UHGV virus genome: UHGV-0076424
DNA length: 24,387 nt
Direction: 5' to 3' (one strand)
Source of the DNA: a virus
Position 1 is the stretch's first letter. Each line of letters starts with the position of its first letter. Under the pieces are notes generated by a model, which was not told the origin of the DNA, searched no databases, and worked only from the letters and a program-made list of their open reading frames with translations. Shown here piece by piece: positions 462 through 22,372 of the stretch. Made by a program: the position numbers and the translations under genes.

Positions 462-559
462 CTTTCATTAATCCCTGAATTGTTGGTTAATACGCTTGAG
501 GGTGAATGCGAATAATAAAAAAGGAGCCTGTAGCTCCATGATGATTTTGTTTTTCATGC

Positions 560-3034: not shown

Positions 3035-3325
3035 TTAGTGATTCAGGCCGTTACCGCGTCCGTCGAGAAAAACTTCCACGAGCAAATCACGGGTATAAGT
3101 GCGCTCGATGCCGCGATGCAGATAAAGCCGTCCGCGTAAATTAGCTGATGCAGTCCAGGTACCATCTTTGTGTTTGACCAGCATTCCTGGCATGACCGCA
3201 CCTCGATTAACGGTCTGCGTTCCGTAATGTTGATGAACCATAAAAACTCCTGCCCGTAAGCTGGGCTGCTGAACATATAAAGACTTCTGCGCGTATTCAG
3301 GCGGTGGATGGCCGCCGGTTGTCAT
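3035..3325 (-). CDS. Hypothetical 96-aa protein in the kil/cIII position (first gene after pL)
   Basis: Intact ORF immediately upstream of gam in transcription order. Not recognisably lambda Kil or cIII and not arginine-rich like N. An alternative overlapping frame exists (3043..3276). Confidence 0.4.
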   Translation of the reverse strand: MTTGGHPPPEYAQKSLYVQQPSLRAGVFMVHQHYGTQTVNRGAVMPGMLVKHKDGTWTASANLRGRLYLHRGIERTYTRDLLVEVFLDGRGNGLNH

Positions 3326-3497
3326 AACTAAGTCGCCTCGTTGAAGCGACTAAGGTATGAAATGTTGAGTTAATTTCAGCTGGTCACACCGACGTTCACG
3401 CGTCCGTTTCACCCCTCGCACTCCCCGGAGCCTGCTGAAATTCAAGCTGCGGATCTAAGCGGTCATCGCAACGGTGAATCAGGTGATTGCCGTATCG

Positions 3498-3600
3498 TTG
3501 TGTTGTTGCGATGAATTCATTTAAAACTATAGTTGTTTTATCGTCAACAACAAAAGTTGTTTTATTGGTTGTTTTAGATATAACTGGTTGTATTTAAGAT
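3498..3600 (-). promoter_or_regulatory. Candidate pL promoter with OL operators
   Basis: Minus strand reads TTGACG, a 17-nt spacer, then TTAAAT (plus 3542-3547 and 3519-3524). The spacer carries AAAACAACTATAGTTTT, which matches the pR spacer operator AAAACAACCATAGTTTT with one change. More GGTTGTT/AACAAC repeats lie at 3545-3593. Confidence 0.5.
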
Positions 3601-3683
3601 GGATTTATTTTGTGACTTGCATCGCATAGCGATAACTGAAGCGAGGTCGTGGTGGTTTTTTGAACGGTTTGTGTGATGAGGGG

Positions 3684-3717
3684 AGGCAAAAGAAAACCCG
3701 GCACTGGGGCCGGGTTT
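3684..3717 (-). terminator. Intrinsic terminator ending the cI-cassette transcript (timm-like)
   Basis: 8-bp GC-rich stem AACCCGGC/GCCGGGTT with a 6-nt loop, followed on the minus strand by TTTTCTTTT; sits just downstream of the 146-aa gene. Confidence 0.55.
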
Positions 3718-3792: not shown

Positions 3793-4233
3793 CTAAAGAA
3801 AAAAGTACATTGATAGCTTATAAAGACCTGTTCCTGCAGCGATGATTGCTGGAACACCAAGCAATACCGCAAGCTTTGCGTCTGAAATCTTTCTATCGAC
3901 AGCATCGATGGAGGGTTTTTTGGCTAGTGAATCTTTTATTGAATCGAGTCGCTCCAGAACAGCGATCATGTTTCTGTCGATAGATTTGACATCTGTCTTA
4001 AGCTCATCAACGTCACGTCGGATATAGGACACATCAGACTCAAGCTTTGCAACTTTCGATTCAAGCACATTATTACTCCCAGAGCCACCGCTACCACTTG
4101 ATTGTAGCATAGGTACATTACCGCCAGACATACCAGCTGATTGAGAAAATGCTGCAGTGTGCAAAGATGATGATCTTGCCGCTTGTTCAAGCTTTTCAGT
4201 TAGGTTTGGAGCTTCGTAATAACCGTGTTTCAT
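3793..4233 (-). CDS. Coiled-coil protein with C-terminal transmembrane anchor (XhlA-like architecture), rexB-position gene
   Basis: 146 aa: Ser/Gly-rich N-terminus, heptad-like segment (VLESKVAKLESDVSYIRRDVDELKTDVKSIDRNMIAVLERLDSIKDSLAKK), hydrophobic C-terminus (LAVLLGVPAIIAAGTGLYKL). Low GC compared with the flanking lambda genes. Confidence 0.6.
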   Translation of the reverse strand: MKHGYYEAPNLTEKLEQAARSSSLHTAAFSQSAGMSGGNVPMLQSSGSGGSGSNNVLESKVAKLESDVSYIRRDVDELKTDVKSIDRNMIAVLERLDSIKDSLAKKPSIDAVDRKISDAKLAVLLGVPAIIAAGTGLYKLSMYFFL

Positions 4234-4241
4234 TGTTAATA

Positions 4242-4511
4242 TTATGACTTATTGGTTTTAGCTCTATCATGCTGATCGCGAATAAAGTCAGCGAGTTTAA
4301 GCATTAAATCTTCCGTCATGCGAATTGTTGCAATGTTGTACTTTACGTTTTCAGTGTCATTACTACCATCAGCGCCCCATTCTGTAACATGCTGAAAGAA
4401 AGATATGGAGCCTAAGCGATCGTCATCTTCCCCAAAAGATGAATATCCAAATGCATCAGCATATGCATCTACACAGTTATTTGATTTTTTTATAAGTTTT
4501 TTATCACTCAT
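4242..4511 (-). CDS. Hypothetical acidic 89-aa protein, rexA-position gene
   Basis: Intact ORF 80 nt downstream of the cI stop and 8 nt upstream of the 146-aa gene; low GC; no family recognised. Confidence 0.55.
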   Translation of the reverse strand: MSDKKLIKKSNNCVDAYADAFGYSSFGEDDDRLGSISFFQHVTEWGADGSNDTENVKYNIATIRMTEDLMLKLADFIRDQHDRAKTNKS

Positions 4512-5280: not shown

Positions 5281-5384
5281 AGTCCAAATGTACAACCAAG
5301 GTTTTATTCCATCAAACGAAAATGGTTGTTGACTAAAAACAACCATAGTTTTAATCTTGATTCAAATTAACCACGGAGGTTGTT
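5281..5384. promoter_or_regulatory. OR operator region with pR (and presumably pRM)
   Basis: pR: TTGACT (5329-5334), 17-nt spacer, TAATCT (5352-5357), GGAGG RBS, ATG at 5385. Palindromic AACAACCAT/ATGGTTGTT operator motifs are repeated three times. Confidence 0.6.
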
Positions 5385-5615
5385 ATGAATCCAGCTATCA
5401 AAACAGCGATCAATATCGTTGGTTCACAAAAGAAACTGGGCGCTGCCTGCGAAGTTTCACAGCAGGCCGTCTATAAGTGGCTTCACAACAAAGCAAAGGT
5501 ATCCCCTGAACATGTCGGCAGCATTGTTACGGCTACTGGTGGAGTAGTGAAGGCATACCAGATTCGCCCGGATCTTCCGAAGTTGTTTCCACACACCGAA
5601 AAGAACGCAGCTTAA
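5385..5615 (+). CDS. Cro/YdaS-like HTH regulator
   Basis: 76 aa with an HTH (SQKKLGAACEVSQQAVYKWL); first gene rightward from pR, divergent from cI. Confidence 0.75.
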   Translation: MNPAIKTAINIVGSQKKLGAACEVSQQAVYKWLHNKAKVSPEHVGSIVTATGGVVKAYQIRPDLPKLFPHTEKNAA

Positions 5616-5684
5616 ATTTCCATTTCACGCTCTTTAACAATAAGCAATCAACTTAACAGTCAATTCAAACTAAAGGAGTCAATT

Positions 5685-6224
5685 ATGCAACCACTTACAT
5701 ACCAACAGACTAGCGGATTTAGCCCGACTGCGGTGATAAATCGTTCTCAAACAAAACAGGTGCCAGGCCACGAAAAAATCCGTGATGCCGTCCGCGCCTG
5801 GTCGGCTGAAGATAATCAGGATGTCGTTGCCACACTCATTGTGAATGAGTATCGGGAGCAGGGCGGCGGCACTATCGATTTCCCTGATGATGTCAGCCGT
5901 GCACGCCAGAAGCTGTTCCGCTTCCTCGATAACAAATTCGATTCTGAAAAATACCGAAATAACGTGCGTGAACTGACCCCGGCAATTCTGGCGGTACTAC
6001 CGCTGGAATATCGCGGCCACCTGGTTGAGCAGGATAGCTTCATGGCTCGGCTGGCTGAAATGGAAAAGGAACTCTGTGAGGCAAAGCAGGCGGTCATTCT
6101 CAACGCACCACGCCACCAGAAACTGAAGGAGATGAGTGAAGGCATTGTGTCGATGTTTCGAGTGGACCCGGATCTGGCTGGTCCATTGATGGCGATGGTC
6201 ACCACCATGCTGGGGGCAATATGA
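5685..6224 (+). CDS. cII-position protein, possibly YdaT-family (CII-like) regulator
   Basis: 179-aa ORF with AGGAG RBS between cro-like and O; the EYREQGGG segment resembles my recollection of Rac YdaT. Its stop overlaps an in-frame upstream ATG of O (ATGA). Confidence 0.55.
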   Translation: MQPLTYQQTSGFSPTAVINRSQTKQVPGHEKIRDAVRAWSAEDNQDVVATLIVNEYREQGGGTIDFPDDVSRARQKLFRFLDNKFDSEKYRNNVRELTPAILAVLPLEYRGHLVEQDSFMARLAEMEKELCEAKQAVILNAPRHQKLKEMSEGIVSMFRVDPDLAGPLMAMVTTMLGAI

Positions 6225-13860: not shown

Positions 13861-13945
13861 AGTCAGAGATAACAATCAACTAATACTGTTTTATTGATTT
13901 TTGCTTGTAATTGGCGTTCTGGTCTGATTTTTGTGGAGTAAGTTG

Positions 13946-14329
13946 ATGCGTGATATTCAGATGGTTCTTGAGCGTTGGGGAGCGTGGGCGGCTAATAATC
14001 ATGAAGATGTGACCTGGTCGTCCATTGCCGCCGGTTTTAAGGGATTAATTCCTTCAAAAGTAAAATCTCGCCCGCAATGTTGTGACGATGACGCGATGAT
14101 CATTTGCGGGTGCATGGCCCGTCTGAAAAAGAACAACAGCGATTTGCACGATTTATTAGTAGATTATTATGTAGTCGGTATGACATTCATGTCACTGGCA
14201 GGTAAGCATTGCTGCTCTGATGGTTATATCGGGAAAAGGTTACAGAAGGCTGAGGGCATAATTGAAGGGATGTTAATGGCATTAGATATCCGGTTAGAGA
14301 TGGATATCGTTGTTAATAACTCTAATTAA
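13946..14329 (+). CDS. quuD: Late-gene antiterminator Q (QuuD, phage 82-type)
   Basis: 127 aa from the ATG at 13946 ([26 protein letters not shown]...), preceded by GGAG; matches K-12 QuuD as recalled. Cys-rich zinc-binding region present. Confidence 0.85.
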
Positions 14330-19626: not shown

Positions 19627-20172
19627 ATGGAAGTCAACAAAAAGCAGCTGGCTGACATTTTCGGTGCGAGTATCCGTACCATTCAGAACTGGCAGGAACA
19701 GGGAATGCCCGTTCTGCGAGGCGGTGGCAAGGGTAATGAGGTGCTTTATGACTCTGCCGCCGTTATAAAATGGTATGCCGAAAGGGATGCTGAAATTGAG
19801 AACGAAAAGCTGCGCCGGGAGGTTGAAGAACTGCGGCAGGCCAGCGAGGCAGATCTCCAGCCAGGGACTATTGAGTACGAACGCCATCGACTTACGCGTG
19901 CACAGGCCGACGCACAGGAGCTGAAAAATGCCAGAGACTCCGCTGAAGTGGTGGAAACCGCATTCTGTACTTTCGTGCTGTCGCGGATCGCAGGTGAAAT
20001 TGCCAGTATTCTCGACGGGATCCCCCTGTCGGTGCAGCGGCGTTTTCCGGAACTGGAAAACCGACATGTTGATTTCCTGAAACGGGATATCATCAAAGCC
20101 ATGAACAAAGCAGCCGCGCTGGATGAACTGATACCGGGGTTGCTGAGTGAATATATCGAACAGTCAGGTTAA
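19627..20172 (+). CDS. nohD: Terminase small subunit Nu1
   Basis: 181-aa product [54 protein letters not shown]... is essentially identical to lambda Nu1. Confidence 0.95.
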
Positions 20173-22372
20173 CAGGCTGCGGCATTTTGTCCGCGCCGGG
20201 CTTCGCTCACTGTTCAGGCCGGAGCCACAGACCGCCGTTGAATGGGCGGATGCCAATTATTATCTCCCGAAAGAATCCGCATACCAGGAAGGGCGCTGGG
20301 AAACACTGCCCTTTCAGCGGGCCATCATGAATGCGATGGGCAGTGACTACGTCCGCGAGGTGAATGTGGTGAAGTCTGCCCGTGTTGGTTATTCCAAAAT
20401 GCTGCTGGGTGTTTATGCCTACTTCATAGAGCATAAGCAGCGCAACACCCTTATCTGGTTGCCGACGGATGGTGATGCCGAGAACTTTATGAAAACCCAC
20501 GTTGAGCCGACCATCCGCGATATTCCTTCGCTGCTTGCGCTGGCCCCGTGGTATGGCAAAAAGCACCGGGATAACACGCTCACCATGAAGCGTTTCACCA
20601 ATGGGCGTGGCTTCTGGTGCCTGGGCGGTAAAGCGGCAAAAAACTACCGTGAAAAGTCGGTGGATGTGGCGGGTTATGATGAACTTGCTGCCTTTGATGA
20701 GGATATTGAACAGGAAGGCTCTCCGACGTTCCTTGGCGACAAACGTATTGAAGGCTCGGTCTGGCCAAAGTCCATCCGTGGCTCCACGCCCAAAGTGAGA
20801 GGCACCTGCCAGATTGAGCGTGCAGCCAGTGAATCCCCGCATTTTATGCGTTTTCATGTTGCCTGCCCGCACTGCGGGGAGGAGCAGTACCTTAAATTTG
20901 GCGATAAAGAGACGCCGTTTGGCCTCAAATGGACGCCGGATGATCCCTCCAGCGTGTTTTATCTCTGCGAACATAATGCCTGCGTCATCCGCCAGCAGGA
21001 GCTGGACTTCACTGATGCCCGTTATATCTGCGAAAAGACCGGGATCTGGACCCGTGATGGCATTCTCTGGTTTTCGTCATCCGGTGAAGAGATTGAGCCG
21101 CCGGACAGCGTGACCTTTCACATCTGGACGGCGTACAGCCCGTTCACCACCTGGGTGCAGATTGTCAAAGACTGGATGAAAACGAAAGGGGATACGGGAA
21201 AACGTAAAACCTTCGTAAACACCACGCTCGGTGAGACGTGGGAGGCGAAAATTGGCGAACGTCCGGATGCTGAAGTGATGGCAGAGCGGAAAGAGCATTA
21301 TTCAGCGCCCGTTGCCGCACCGGCAGCGCCGTCGCGGATTGAGCTGACGCCGGGCTATTTTCAGATAACCGCCACGCCGCATCTTGCGGTTTATGATCCG
21401 ACGGTACAGTTTGAGTTCTGGTTCTCGGAAAAGCGGATTGCGGATATCAGGCAGGTTGAAACCACAGCACGCTATCTTGGCACGGCGCTGTACTGGATAG
21501 CCGCCAGTATCAATATCAAACCGGGCCATGATTATTACTTTTATATCCGCAGTGTGAACACCGTTGGCAAATCGGCATTCGTGGAGGCTGTTGGTCAGCC
21601 GAGTGATGATGCATCCGGTTATCTGGATTTTTTCAAAGGCGAGATAGGGAAAACCCATCTGGCTCAGGAGCTGTGGACGCAGATTGATAACGGTCAGCTT
21701 GCGCCTGACCTGGCTGAAATCAGGACGTCCATTACGGATGTCAGCAATGAAATCACGCAGACCGTCAATAAGAAACTGGAAAACCAGAGTGCGGCAATTC
21801 AGCAGATACAGAAGGTTCAGGTTGATACAAATAATAACCTGAACAGCATGTGGGCTGTGAAGCTGCAGCAGATGCAGGACGGACGCCTTTATATCGCGGG
21901 TATTGGTGCCGGTATTGAGAACACCCCTGACGGCATGCAGAGTCAGGTGCTGCTGGCGGCGGACAGGATTGCGATGGTTAATCCTGCGAATGGCAACACA
22001 AAACCGATGTTTGTTGGTCAGGGCGATCAGATATTCATGAACGACGTGTTCCTGAAACGCCTGACGGCCCCCACCATTACCAGCGGTGGCAGTCCTCCGG
22101 TATCGCCGGAAGGGGAGTTTCAGAAGTGGAACGGCACAGCCTGGGTGAAAGATGCAGAAGCAGAAAAACTGTTCCGGATCCGGGAGGCGGAAGAAACAAA
22201 AAACAGCCTGATGCAGGTAGCCAGTGAGCATATTTCGCCACTTCAGGATGCGGTAGATCTGGAGATTGCAACGGAGGAAGAAATATCGTTGCTGACAGCC
22301 TGGAAGAAGTATCGGGTATTGCTGAACCGTGTTGATATTCTTGAGCCAGTTTGGCCTGTGCAACCACAATAA
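20147..22372 (+). pseudogene. Chimeric deletion-scar ORF: terminase large subunit A N-terminus fused in frame to tail-tip J and tail-fibre-assembly (Tfa) C-terminal fragments
   Basis: Residues 1 to ~390 (to KEHYSAPV) match lambda gpA. The product then continues as [34 protein letters not shown]...[20 protein letters not shown] (lambda J C-terminal region) and ends [17 protein letters not shown]...LLNRVD (Tfa C-terminus). Confidence 0.8.

Follow-up and report, generated by a model that had tools for sequence, protein, structure and literature searches.

The early-left operon and its promoter

The stretch of DNA analysed here, 24,387 nucleotides (nt) of the virus genome UHGV-0076424 and referred to throughout as the window, is a lambda-like, DLP12-like prophage of Escherichia coli. 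Its early-left region, on the minus strand, consists of the promoter pL, a long 5' untranslated leader, which is the subject of this work, and an operon that opens with a homologue of kilR and continues with gam, bet and exo (names as annotated in relatives). The 331 bases from 3230 to 3560, which cover pL, the leader and the start of kilR, are 100% identical to the chromosome of E. coli SW070917, and the early-left region shares 91-97% identity with the isolated phages 4A7, 4C10, Perceval and PhiR5_1. Phage 4A7, classified in the genus Bievrevirus, is an intact relative with a 49-kb genome. The features are collected in Table 1. An earlier, first-pass annotation had singled out positions 3326-3600, a region that comprises pL and the first two thirds of a leader that now measures ~271 nt.

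By its sequence, pL is a sigma-70 promoter on the minus strand. Its hexamers lie where the first-pass annotation had placed an operator-bearing promoter, at ~3519-3547, and the pR-like core and the overlapping repeats agree with that placement. The core formed by the spacer and the -10 element (AAAACAACTATAGTTTTAAAT) is identical at 19 of 21 positions to the core of pR (AAAACAACCATAGTTTTAATC, ~5335-5356), and a site similar to the left operator (OL) repeats lies in the right operator (OR) region at 5339-5356. Early-left transcription would start with the A at ~3512. Just upstream of OL and pL, the operon on the repressor side is closed by a strong intrinsic terminator with a 9-bp stem containing six G-C pairs and followed by a T-run; with this terminator in place, the region downstream of pL is truly a leader.

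Table 1. Coordinates of the early-left features and of the neighbouring elements discussed in the text
Feature	Position	Strand	Description
First good intrinsic terminator after pL	523..537	minus	~3 kb downstream, beyond exo and small open reading frames (ORFs)
kilR-like FtsZ-inhibitor gene	3035..3241	minus	68 amino acids (aa); Shine-Dalgarno AGGAG 3251-3247; first early-left gene
In-frame extension yielding a 96-aa ORF	3242..3325	minus	most likely untranslated, from homology, indels and variation
Early-left 5' untranslated leader	3242..3512	minus	~271 nt; no conserved ORF
Stable hairpin, predicted	3322..3360	minus	sequesters GAGG 3339-3336 and the in-frame upstream AUG 3325-3323
Conserved leader core	3326..3478	minus	mosaic joints to different upstream cassettes at 3512 or 3478
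31-aa TTG ORF	3350..3445	minus	arginine-rich (KRTRERR), in frame with kilR; no Shine-Dalgarno
5'-terminal stem-loop, predicted	3464..3513	minus	CAUCGCAAC (3513-3505) pairs with GUUGCGAUG (3472-3464); 32-nt loop
pL	3519..3547	minus	-35 TTGACG 3547-3542, 17-nt spacer, -10 TTAAAT 3524-3519; read from sequence
OL operator repeats	3525-3541 and 3549-3565		two 17-nt copies overlapping pL; 88% identity, 24-nt spacing (repeat search)
Conserved block upstream of OL	3603..3640	strand-neutral	alignment of five relatives
Intrinsic terminator closing the repressor-side operon (cI-like gene and two accessory ORFs)	3694..3717	minus	terminator scan
Accessory ORFs after the repressor gene	4242-4511 and 3793-4233	minus	
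S24/LexA-type repressor (cI-like)	4591-5280/5346	minus	
YdaS-like cro	5385-5615	plus	rightward from pR
Near-consensus rrn-type boxA CGCTCTTTAACAA	5628..5640	plus	at the nutR position of the pR transcript; the cro stop lies 13 nt upstream
YdaT-like gene, cII position	5685-6224	plus	

The first gene and the extent of the leader

The first early-left gene matches PHROG 294, ‘Kil’, with E = 1.2e-38, and the NCBIfam model NF008465 aligns with residues 29-96 of the 96-aa ORF with E = 4.4e-17 and 61.9 bits, where the curated subfamily cut-off is 92. On these profile matches its product is a KilR homologue, though not a certified equivalent of the KilR of the Rac prophage. The NF008465 homology sets in at Met29 of the 96-aa ORF, which is ATG 3241. 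The RefSeq entry, a 207-nt ‘phage encoded cell division inhibitor’, and the 4A7 record, which gives the 68-aa form, point to the same codon. The first-pass annotation had begun the gene at 3325 and had estimated the leader at ~180 nt; with the start moved to ATG 3241, the leader runs from 3512 to 3242.

The variation in the in-frame extension bears on the same point. Two relatives (L160 and L108) carry deletions of 1 nt and 2 nt within 3325-3242 that shift the frame, and the few changes seen there follow no coding pattern and show no excess at third positions. kilR proper has 23 synonymous and 8 non-synonymous changes. In several phage records the annotated ‘Kil’ protein is longer.

Between 3511 and 3326 neither strand holds an ORF of at least 60 aa, as the first-pass annotation had stated. 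Such an absence over 186 nt is not statistically remarkable in itself; it is conservation and modular behaviour, described below, that make the leader real. The further claim that no short ORF exceeds three codons holds for ATG ORFs, the single example being the three-codon ATGACCGCTTAG, and fails for frames starting with TTG, one of which encodes an arginine-rich peptide of 31 aa containing …GVKRTRERRCDQ…. The TAG stop of this ORF is CAG in 67 of 112 variants, and CAG opens a 68-codon frame into kilR. A search of 5.8 billion proteins for homologues returned only ORF calls from the same E. coli locus. The idea that the peptide is a relic of N was rejected, given the polymorphic stop, the same-locus matches and the coincidence of its arginine codons with a CGGACG...CGUCGG hairpin, and we do not regard the ORF as a gene.

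Absence of N, nut and put

The first-pass annotation had reported no N-like gene, and every approach taken here agrees, including a check outside the window by way of 4A7. Scans of the early-left ORFs against PHROG, Pfam and NCBIfam assigned them to Kil, to a DksA-like protein or to families of unknown function, and none to N. When lambda N, phage 21 N and HK022 Nun were searched by tblastn against the window and the whole 4A7 genome (P22-type gp24 was not a query), the best E values were 0.18-0.9; of the positive controls, lambda N retrieved its own sequence and phage 21 N retrieved lambda N, the latter at 5e-9. The annotation of 4A7 lists a Q-like antiterminator only, and no N.

A scan of the leader (3242-3512) for boxA and boxB, as the first-pass annotation had suggested, was negative. 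No match to boxA (CGCUCUUA / GCUCUUUAACAA) was found there with up to three mismatches for the 13-mer or up to one for the 8-mer, and no boxB hairpin appears in the leader folds or after the boxA of the pR transcript. That boxA (Table 1) is the sole match in the window with at most one mismatch; ~50 loci with this immunity type have kept its core, which phage 4A7 lacks. With no boxB beside it, it may serve an N-independent protection of the long pR transcript from Rho by Nus factors.

A search by BLAST for a second copy of the leader in the pR operon, made against the whole window, returned only a chance-level match of 15 nt. This motif, CGCAGCTTRAATTTC, lies at 3437-3451 on the minus strand and at 5606-5620 on the plus strand, where it spans the cro stop just before boxA. 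As a recognition site shared by the left and right (L/R) operons it was rejected as a coincidence, because the right-hand match is confined to a single immunity type and absent from the others, the majority leader allele is mismatched, and E = 1.1.

In HK022, put, an RNA of ~70 nt with two stems, acts in cis on the zinc-binding domain of the RNA polymerase beta-prime subunit, suppressing pausing and termination (PMC9378689). The leader matches no Rfam family at gathering or permissive threshold, a result that is uninformative on put because the HK022 control was empty as well, Rfam having no put model. A covariance model was therefore built from seven put RNAs (HK022 L and R, HK639 L, CobraSix L, phiEt88 L and R, and PdC23 L), its helices imposed from the cryo-EM description (PMC9378689) and its pseudoknot omitted, so that its E values are rough. 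Real put RNAs score 68-97 bits with this model. The best match in the window reaches 10.5 bits (E = 0.42), inside the O gene, and there is none in the leader (3512-3242), in 4A7 or in Rac. The put-invariant blocks GAACGGC, GUCGG and GGCGGG are missing from the leader, apart from an isolated ACGGCAAU. Like the phages that carry put, this one has no N-type protein; it has neither the sequence and structure of put nor its paired copies. An HK022-type put, which the first-pass annotation had put forward as one option, is excluded at the level of sequence and structure.

Predicted folds of the leader

Folded as a whole, positions 3512-3320 reach -60.9 kcal/mol (z = -2.6). The leader's one convincing and well-supported predicted structure is the hairpin at 3360-3322, at -16.9 kcal/mol with z = -5.85; none of 200 shuffled sequences was as stable. 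In the modelled fold UCAUA pairs with UAUGA, which buries AUG 3325 and the GAGG that precedes it. Among the structure variants, 112 unique sequences from IMG/VR and phage records, substitutions in the stem comprise eight pair-preserving types and one pair-breaking type. The hairpin is not a canonical terminator, since it has no U-tract. The first-pass annotation had noticed a stem-loop over the ribosome-binding site of the first gene; the overlap with GAGG and ATG 3325 stands, and what falls away is the role of 3325, which is probably no real start.

At the other end of the leader, the 5'-terminal stem-loop is predicted at -12.5 kcal/mol (z = -3.2). In two relatives (L081 and L154) the differences, substitutions and an 8-nt insertion, fall in the loop and leave both stem arms intact; in another type (L110) the stem is weaker, with 5 bp remaining. 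A central long-range helix at 3442-3372 is broken in the majority allele. An anti-Shine-Dalgarno pairing of 3371-3367 with the Shine-Dalgarno of kilR was set aside: it has an ensemble probability of ~0.77, but its duplex energy does not stand out from shuffles (p = 0.145) and a common variant breaks it, so the pairing is not claimed. The A/U-rich linker (3380-3361) ahead of the hairpin is single-stranded and accommodates a 5-nt insertion as well as several substitutions. Base composition changes along the leader: the C/G ratio is 1.5-1.7 towards both ends (3512-3435 and the 78-nt windows that start at 3382-3369) and falls below 0.7 between them.

Terminators downstream of pL

A terminator scan of the minus strand found no terminator-like site in the leader (3242-3512), and no strong terminator is predicted from pL to the end of exo, where there are two weak consensus matches, inside kilR and bet. 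The genes are closely packed, with a 75-nt gap between kilR and gam and an overlap of bet and exo. Likewise, the plus strand of the right operon has no predicted strong terminator from cro to Q.

The first good intrinsic terminator after pL, at 537-523, consists of GGAGCUACAGGCUCC followed by U6, with a 6-bp stem of -8.6 kcal/mol. It is identical in ~95 related loci, lies in a segment that is 97.8% identical to phage lambda 30582-30852, and in intact relatives precedes a DksA-like gene, xis and int. It may be leaky, or it may mark the end of the operon. The other option of the first-pass annotation, read-through without antitermination, fits this anatomy as far as the end of exo and leaves the terminator at 537-523 over.

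Distribution, modularity and constraint

Of 5426 complete E. coli genomes, 2210 (41%) contain the leader core (3470-3326), in every case at least 90% identical and unannotated; K-12 lacks it. kilR is the next gene in 163 of 164 sampled loci, the exception being one deletion variant. On its other side the core is joined to at least three unrelated promoter cassettes, at +1 or at +35: in relatives whose promoter-operator cassettes are unrelated to that of the window, homology begins exactly at 3512/3511, and in a further group at 3478, which fits a module defined by the transcript. These same relatives have in common the block at 3603-3640, which, from the alignment, is the left flank of a swappable immunity cassette whose other flank is the start of the leader. 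The block reads TTCAGTTATCGCTATGCGATGCAAGTCACAAAAT and contains a small palindrome, ATCGC-TAT-GCGAT. The pL and operator of Erwinia phage phiEt88 (L008 2935-2975, TTGTTGTTGACATGAATACAACTATGGTTTTTAAT) are closely similar to the window pL, so that nearly the same immunity cassette occurs in two settings, attached to putL in one and to the kilR leader in the other.

Among 109 unique variants, segregating sites occupy 54 of 237 positions in the leader and the extension against 80 of 166 third codon positions of kilR and gam (Fisher p = 1e-7). The constraint on the leader sequence is real but moderate.

Outside E. coli, the leaders of loci anchored on kilR in Citrobacter, Kluyvera, Silvania, Enterobacter and Pseudocitrobacter give no reliable alignment with that of the window. 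In the first four of these genera the kilR homologues lie directly behind a promoter and a leader of 85-190 nt of other sequence. The ~200 nt upstream of the kilR homologues in the loci of all five genera (L011-L018) make up another family of kilR leaders, unrelated to that of the window and preceded by a TTGATA...TATTAT promoter. Here too the transcripts begin with CAUCG, and in Silvania and Enterobacter the leader is a short, 85-nt version that lacks the second half.

Neighbouring features of the prophage

In the position that rexAB would take, between the repressor gene and pL, the window has two accessory ORFs belonging to PHROG 3556 and 4231 (function unknown), neither of which has a significant PADLOC match. 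The 146-aa accessory protein appears from its sequence to have a coiled-coil-like middle and a hydrophobic C-terminus. Phage 4A7 and similar relatives have different genes at this position.

Rightward, the YdaT-like gene is followed by O, P, ren, the DLP12 accessory block and a Q-like gene at 13931-14329. Further along the plus strand, 20147-22372 is a single 741-aa ORF that fuses the N-terminal 390 aa of the large terminase subunit to J-like tail-fibre and tail-fibre-assembly segments; most morphogenesis genes have thus been lost by deletion, which leaves the prophage defective. Within the tail-fibre portion of this ORF, at 22146-22344 on the plus strand, lies a full-length match to Rfam IS009 (RF02111) of 205 bits. 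In the source genome (L005) int is truncated too, beside an IS3 element.

Comparison with known systems

The closest known relative in function and layout is the kilR leader of Rac in E. coli K-12, which gives rise to KilS. The two prophages have related immunity regions, with YdaS-like and YdaT-like genes at the cro and cII positions, and a KilR homologue as the first early-left gene; neither has N. The annotated start of KilS lies 273 nt upstream of the kilR ATG, against a leader of ~271 nt here. KilS is a leader-derived small RNA of 98 nt, detected in Hfq RIL-seq data and confirmed by northern blot (PMC8175672), and Rac kilR is turned on by read-through upon depletion of NusG (PMC5793797). 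Outside kilR, however, the alignment of the two leaders is essentially random, and the window leader bears no likeness in sequence to KilS.

HK022, HK639 and phiEt88 are also N-less lambdoid phages with an RNA element, putL, directly after pL, and their transcripts start with a similar CAUCG... motif. The window leader differs from them in having no match to the put model, no invariant blocks and no putR-like second copy. The arrangement of the operon differs too: in HK639 and CobraSix, which have putL, kil lies 1.4-2 kb from pL behind other genes, and in HK639 two annotated terminators stand between pL and kil, where the window has none.

The leader of phage lambda carries nutL and, in front of N, a hairpin that is processed by RNase III. 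The lambda leader between pL and N is of comparable length to that of the window, and in both a large hairpin lies directly before the first AUG and occludes it. The window leader has no boxA, boxB or N, however, and the AUG that is occluded here is probably no real start. A wider parallel is with Rho-sensitive 5' untranslated regions (UTRs) and silencing by Rho and NusG, which likewise involve a long untranslated stretch before a toxic, horizontally acquired gene; the window leader, whose Rho dependence we infer, differs in that its excess of C over G is moderate and interrupted by a G-rich segment. The literature on Pas small RNAs and anti-small RNAs concerns the late region, not pL.

The role of the leader

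We favour, at about an even chance of being right, the reading that the early-left operon is independent of N and that its long 5' UTR tunes the toxic first gene kilR, as in Rac. Transcripts from pL would run straight through the UTR into kilR, gam, bet and exo, and N would be dispensable because nothing needs antitermination before the recombination genes. In lambda, HK022 and HK639 an immediate-early gene and a tL1-type terminator create the need for N or put, and on this account the lineage would have neither. The leader itself would be a conserved cis-regulatory module that travels with kilR. Its 5'-terminal stem-loop would protect the 5' end of the transcript, and its long untranslated stretch, with C partly in excess over G, would expose the transcript to attenuation dependent on Rho and NusG, which by analogy with Rac would keep kilR quiet unless pL fires strongly. 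By burying the upstream in-frame AUG, the hairpin at 3360-3322 would restrict the product to the 68-aa KilR, translated from its own Shine-Dalgarno.

Several observations weigh against this reading. Simple read-through leaves unexplained how xis and int could be expressed from pL past the conserved terminator at 537-523. The central, G-rich part of the leader is a poor substrate for Rho, and the intrinsic terminator ~98 nt into the Rac leader that defines KilS, a hairpin followed by CUUUUU, has no counterpart in the window. The case for constraint is also narrower against other yardsticks. The spacer between kilR and gam has 29 segregating sites in 75 positions, so that the leader is only marginally lower (p = 0.01), and nucleotide diversity (pi) in the leader core is no lower than in that spacer, 0.030 against 0.031; an earlier and stronger contrast in diversity carried a sampling bias, its sequences having been gathered by exact match to a 17-mer of the leader, and was redone. 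The 112 structure variants show no compensatory double change, RNAalifold giving none in 75 pairs and a covariation term of -0.87, as may be expected of a family too young for it, in which all copies are at least 90% identical. The backing for the leader structure thus consists of thermodynamics and one-sided changes.

The same youth invites the thought that the leader is a largely functionless spacer, left by a deletion between pL and kil and conserved through recent spread or hitch-hiking with kilR. The equal pi of leader core and kilR-gam spacer and the missing covariation would agree with this, and the stop-free 68-codon frame of the CAG allele could be the trace of a decayed ORF. We nevertheless regard a mere spacer as unlikely, for its density of segregating sites is half that of the neighbouring third codon positions, the stability of the hairpin far exceeds chance and its changes keep the pairing, and the leader has come intact through several independent swaps of the promoter cassette. 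A somewhat fainter prospect is that the leader serves chiefly to supply a trans-acting small RNA like KilS, produced by processing or by a premature 3' end near the hairpin at 3360-3322. Rac sets the precedent with a positionally equivalent leader, and the linker ahead of the hairpin, A/U-rich, single-stranded and variable, has a suitable look; yet the hairpin has no U-tail such as follows that of KilS, and the leader has no sequence similarity to KilS. Translation of the leader, whether into a longer KilR from 3325 or further upstream or into a short arginine-rich, N-like RNA-binding peptide, strikes us as very improbable. It would account for the longer ‘Kil’ proteins in several phage records, for a frame from 3445 that is in phase with kilR and whose TAG is CAG in ~60% of variants, and for the resemblance of KRTRERR to an arginine-rich motif. 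But the candidate start is a TTG with no Shine-Dalgarno, AUG 3325 and its GAGG are buried in the hairpin, relatives have frameshifting indels, the variation has no coding signature and KilR homology starts only at Met29, while the peptide has neither homologues outside the locus nor a boxB target.

The most novel alternative takes up the terminator that simple read-through leaves over. In it the leader core (~3478-3326) would be a new cis-acting antiterminator RNA with a put-like function and an unrelated sequence and fold, replacing both N/nut and put; the RNA would stay on RNA polymerase and take it past Rho sites and the terminator at 537-523, permitting expression of xis and int from pL. 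The phage lineage is viable with no N, nut or put, its lambda-derived left arm has kept that terminator perfectly conserved upstream of xis and int, and the leader starts at +1, is kept with every immunity cassette and is under some sequence constraint. We hold both the element and its proposed action on the terminator to be improbable, because there is no positive evidence for them: the pR operon has no second copy, whereas put and nut occur as L/R pairs; no fold has covariation, and the central helix is broken in the majority allele; and the leader is tied to kilR, not to the operon as such, with other kilR-first lineages having unrelated leaders. The terminator is itself modest at -8.6 kcal/mol; it may be leaky or may simply close the operon. 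Rfam has no family that matches the leader, though it lacks put too.

Implications

The leader looks like the regulatory 5' UTR of an N-independent prophage kil operon, very common and unannotated, and an ordinary device of its kind rather than a demonstrated antitermination device. If this ordinary reading is true, its consequence is mainly a correction of annotation, in the start of kilR and in a 271-nt leader that is unannotated in ~41% of complete E. coli genomes. The prophage would also be a clean lambda-like example of dispensing with N, its delayed-early genes sitting directly behind pL. The puzzle it poses is that of a lambda-derived left arm with a conserved terminator before xis and int, yet with no N, nut or put. 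Were the leader to confer resistance to that terminator, processive antitermination would have been solved by RNA a second time, independently.

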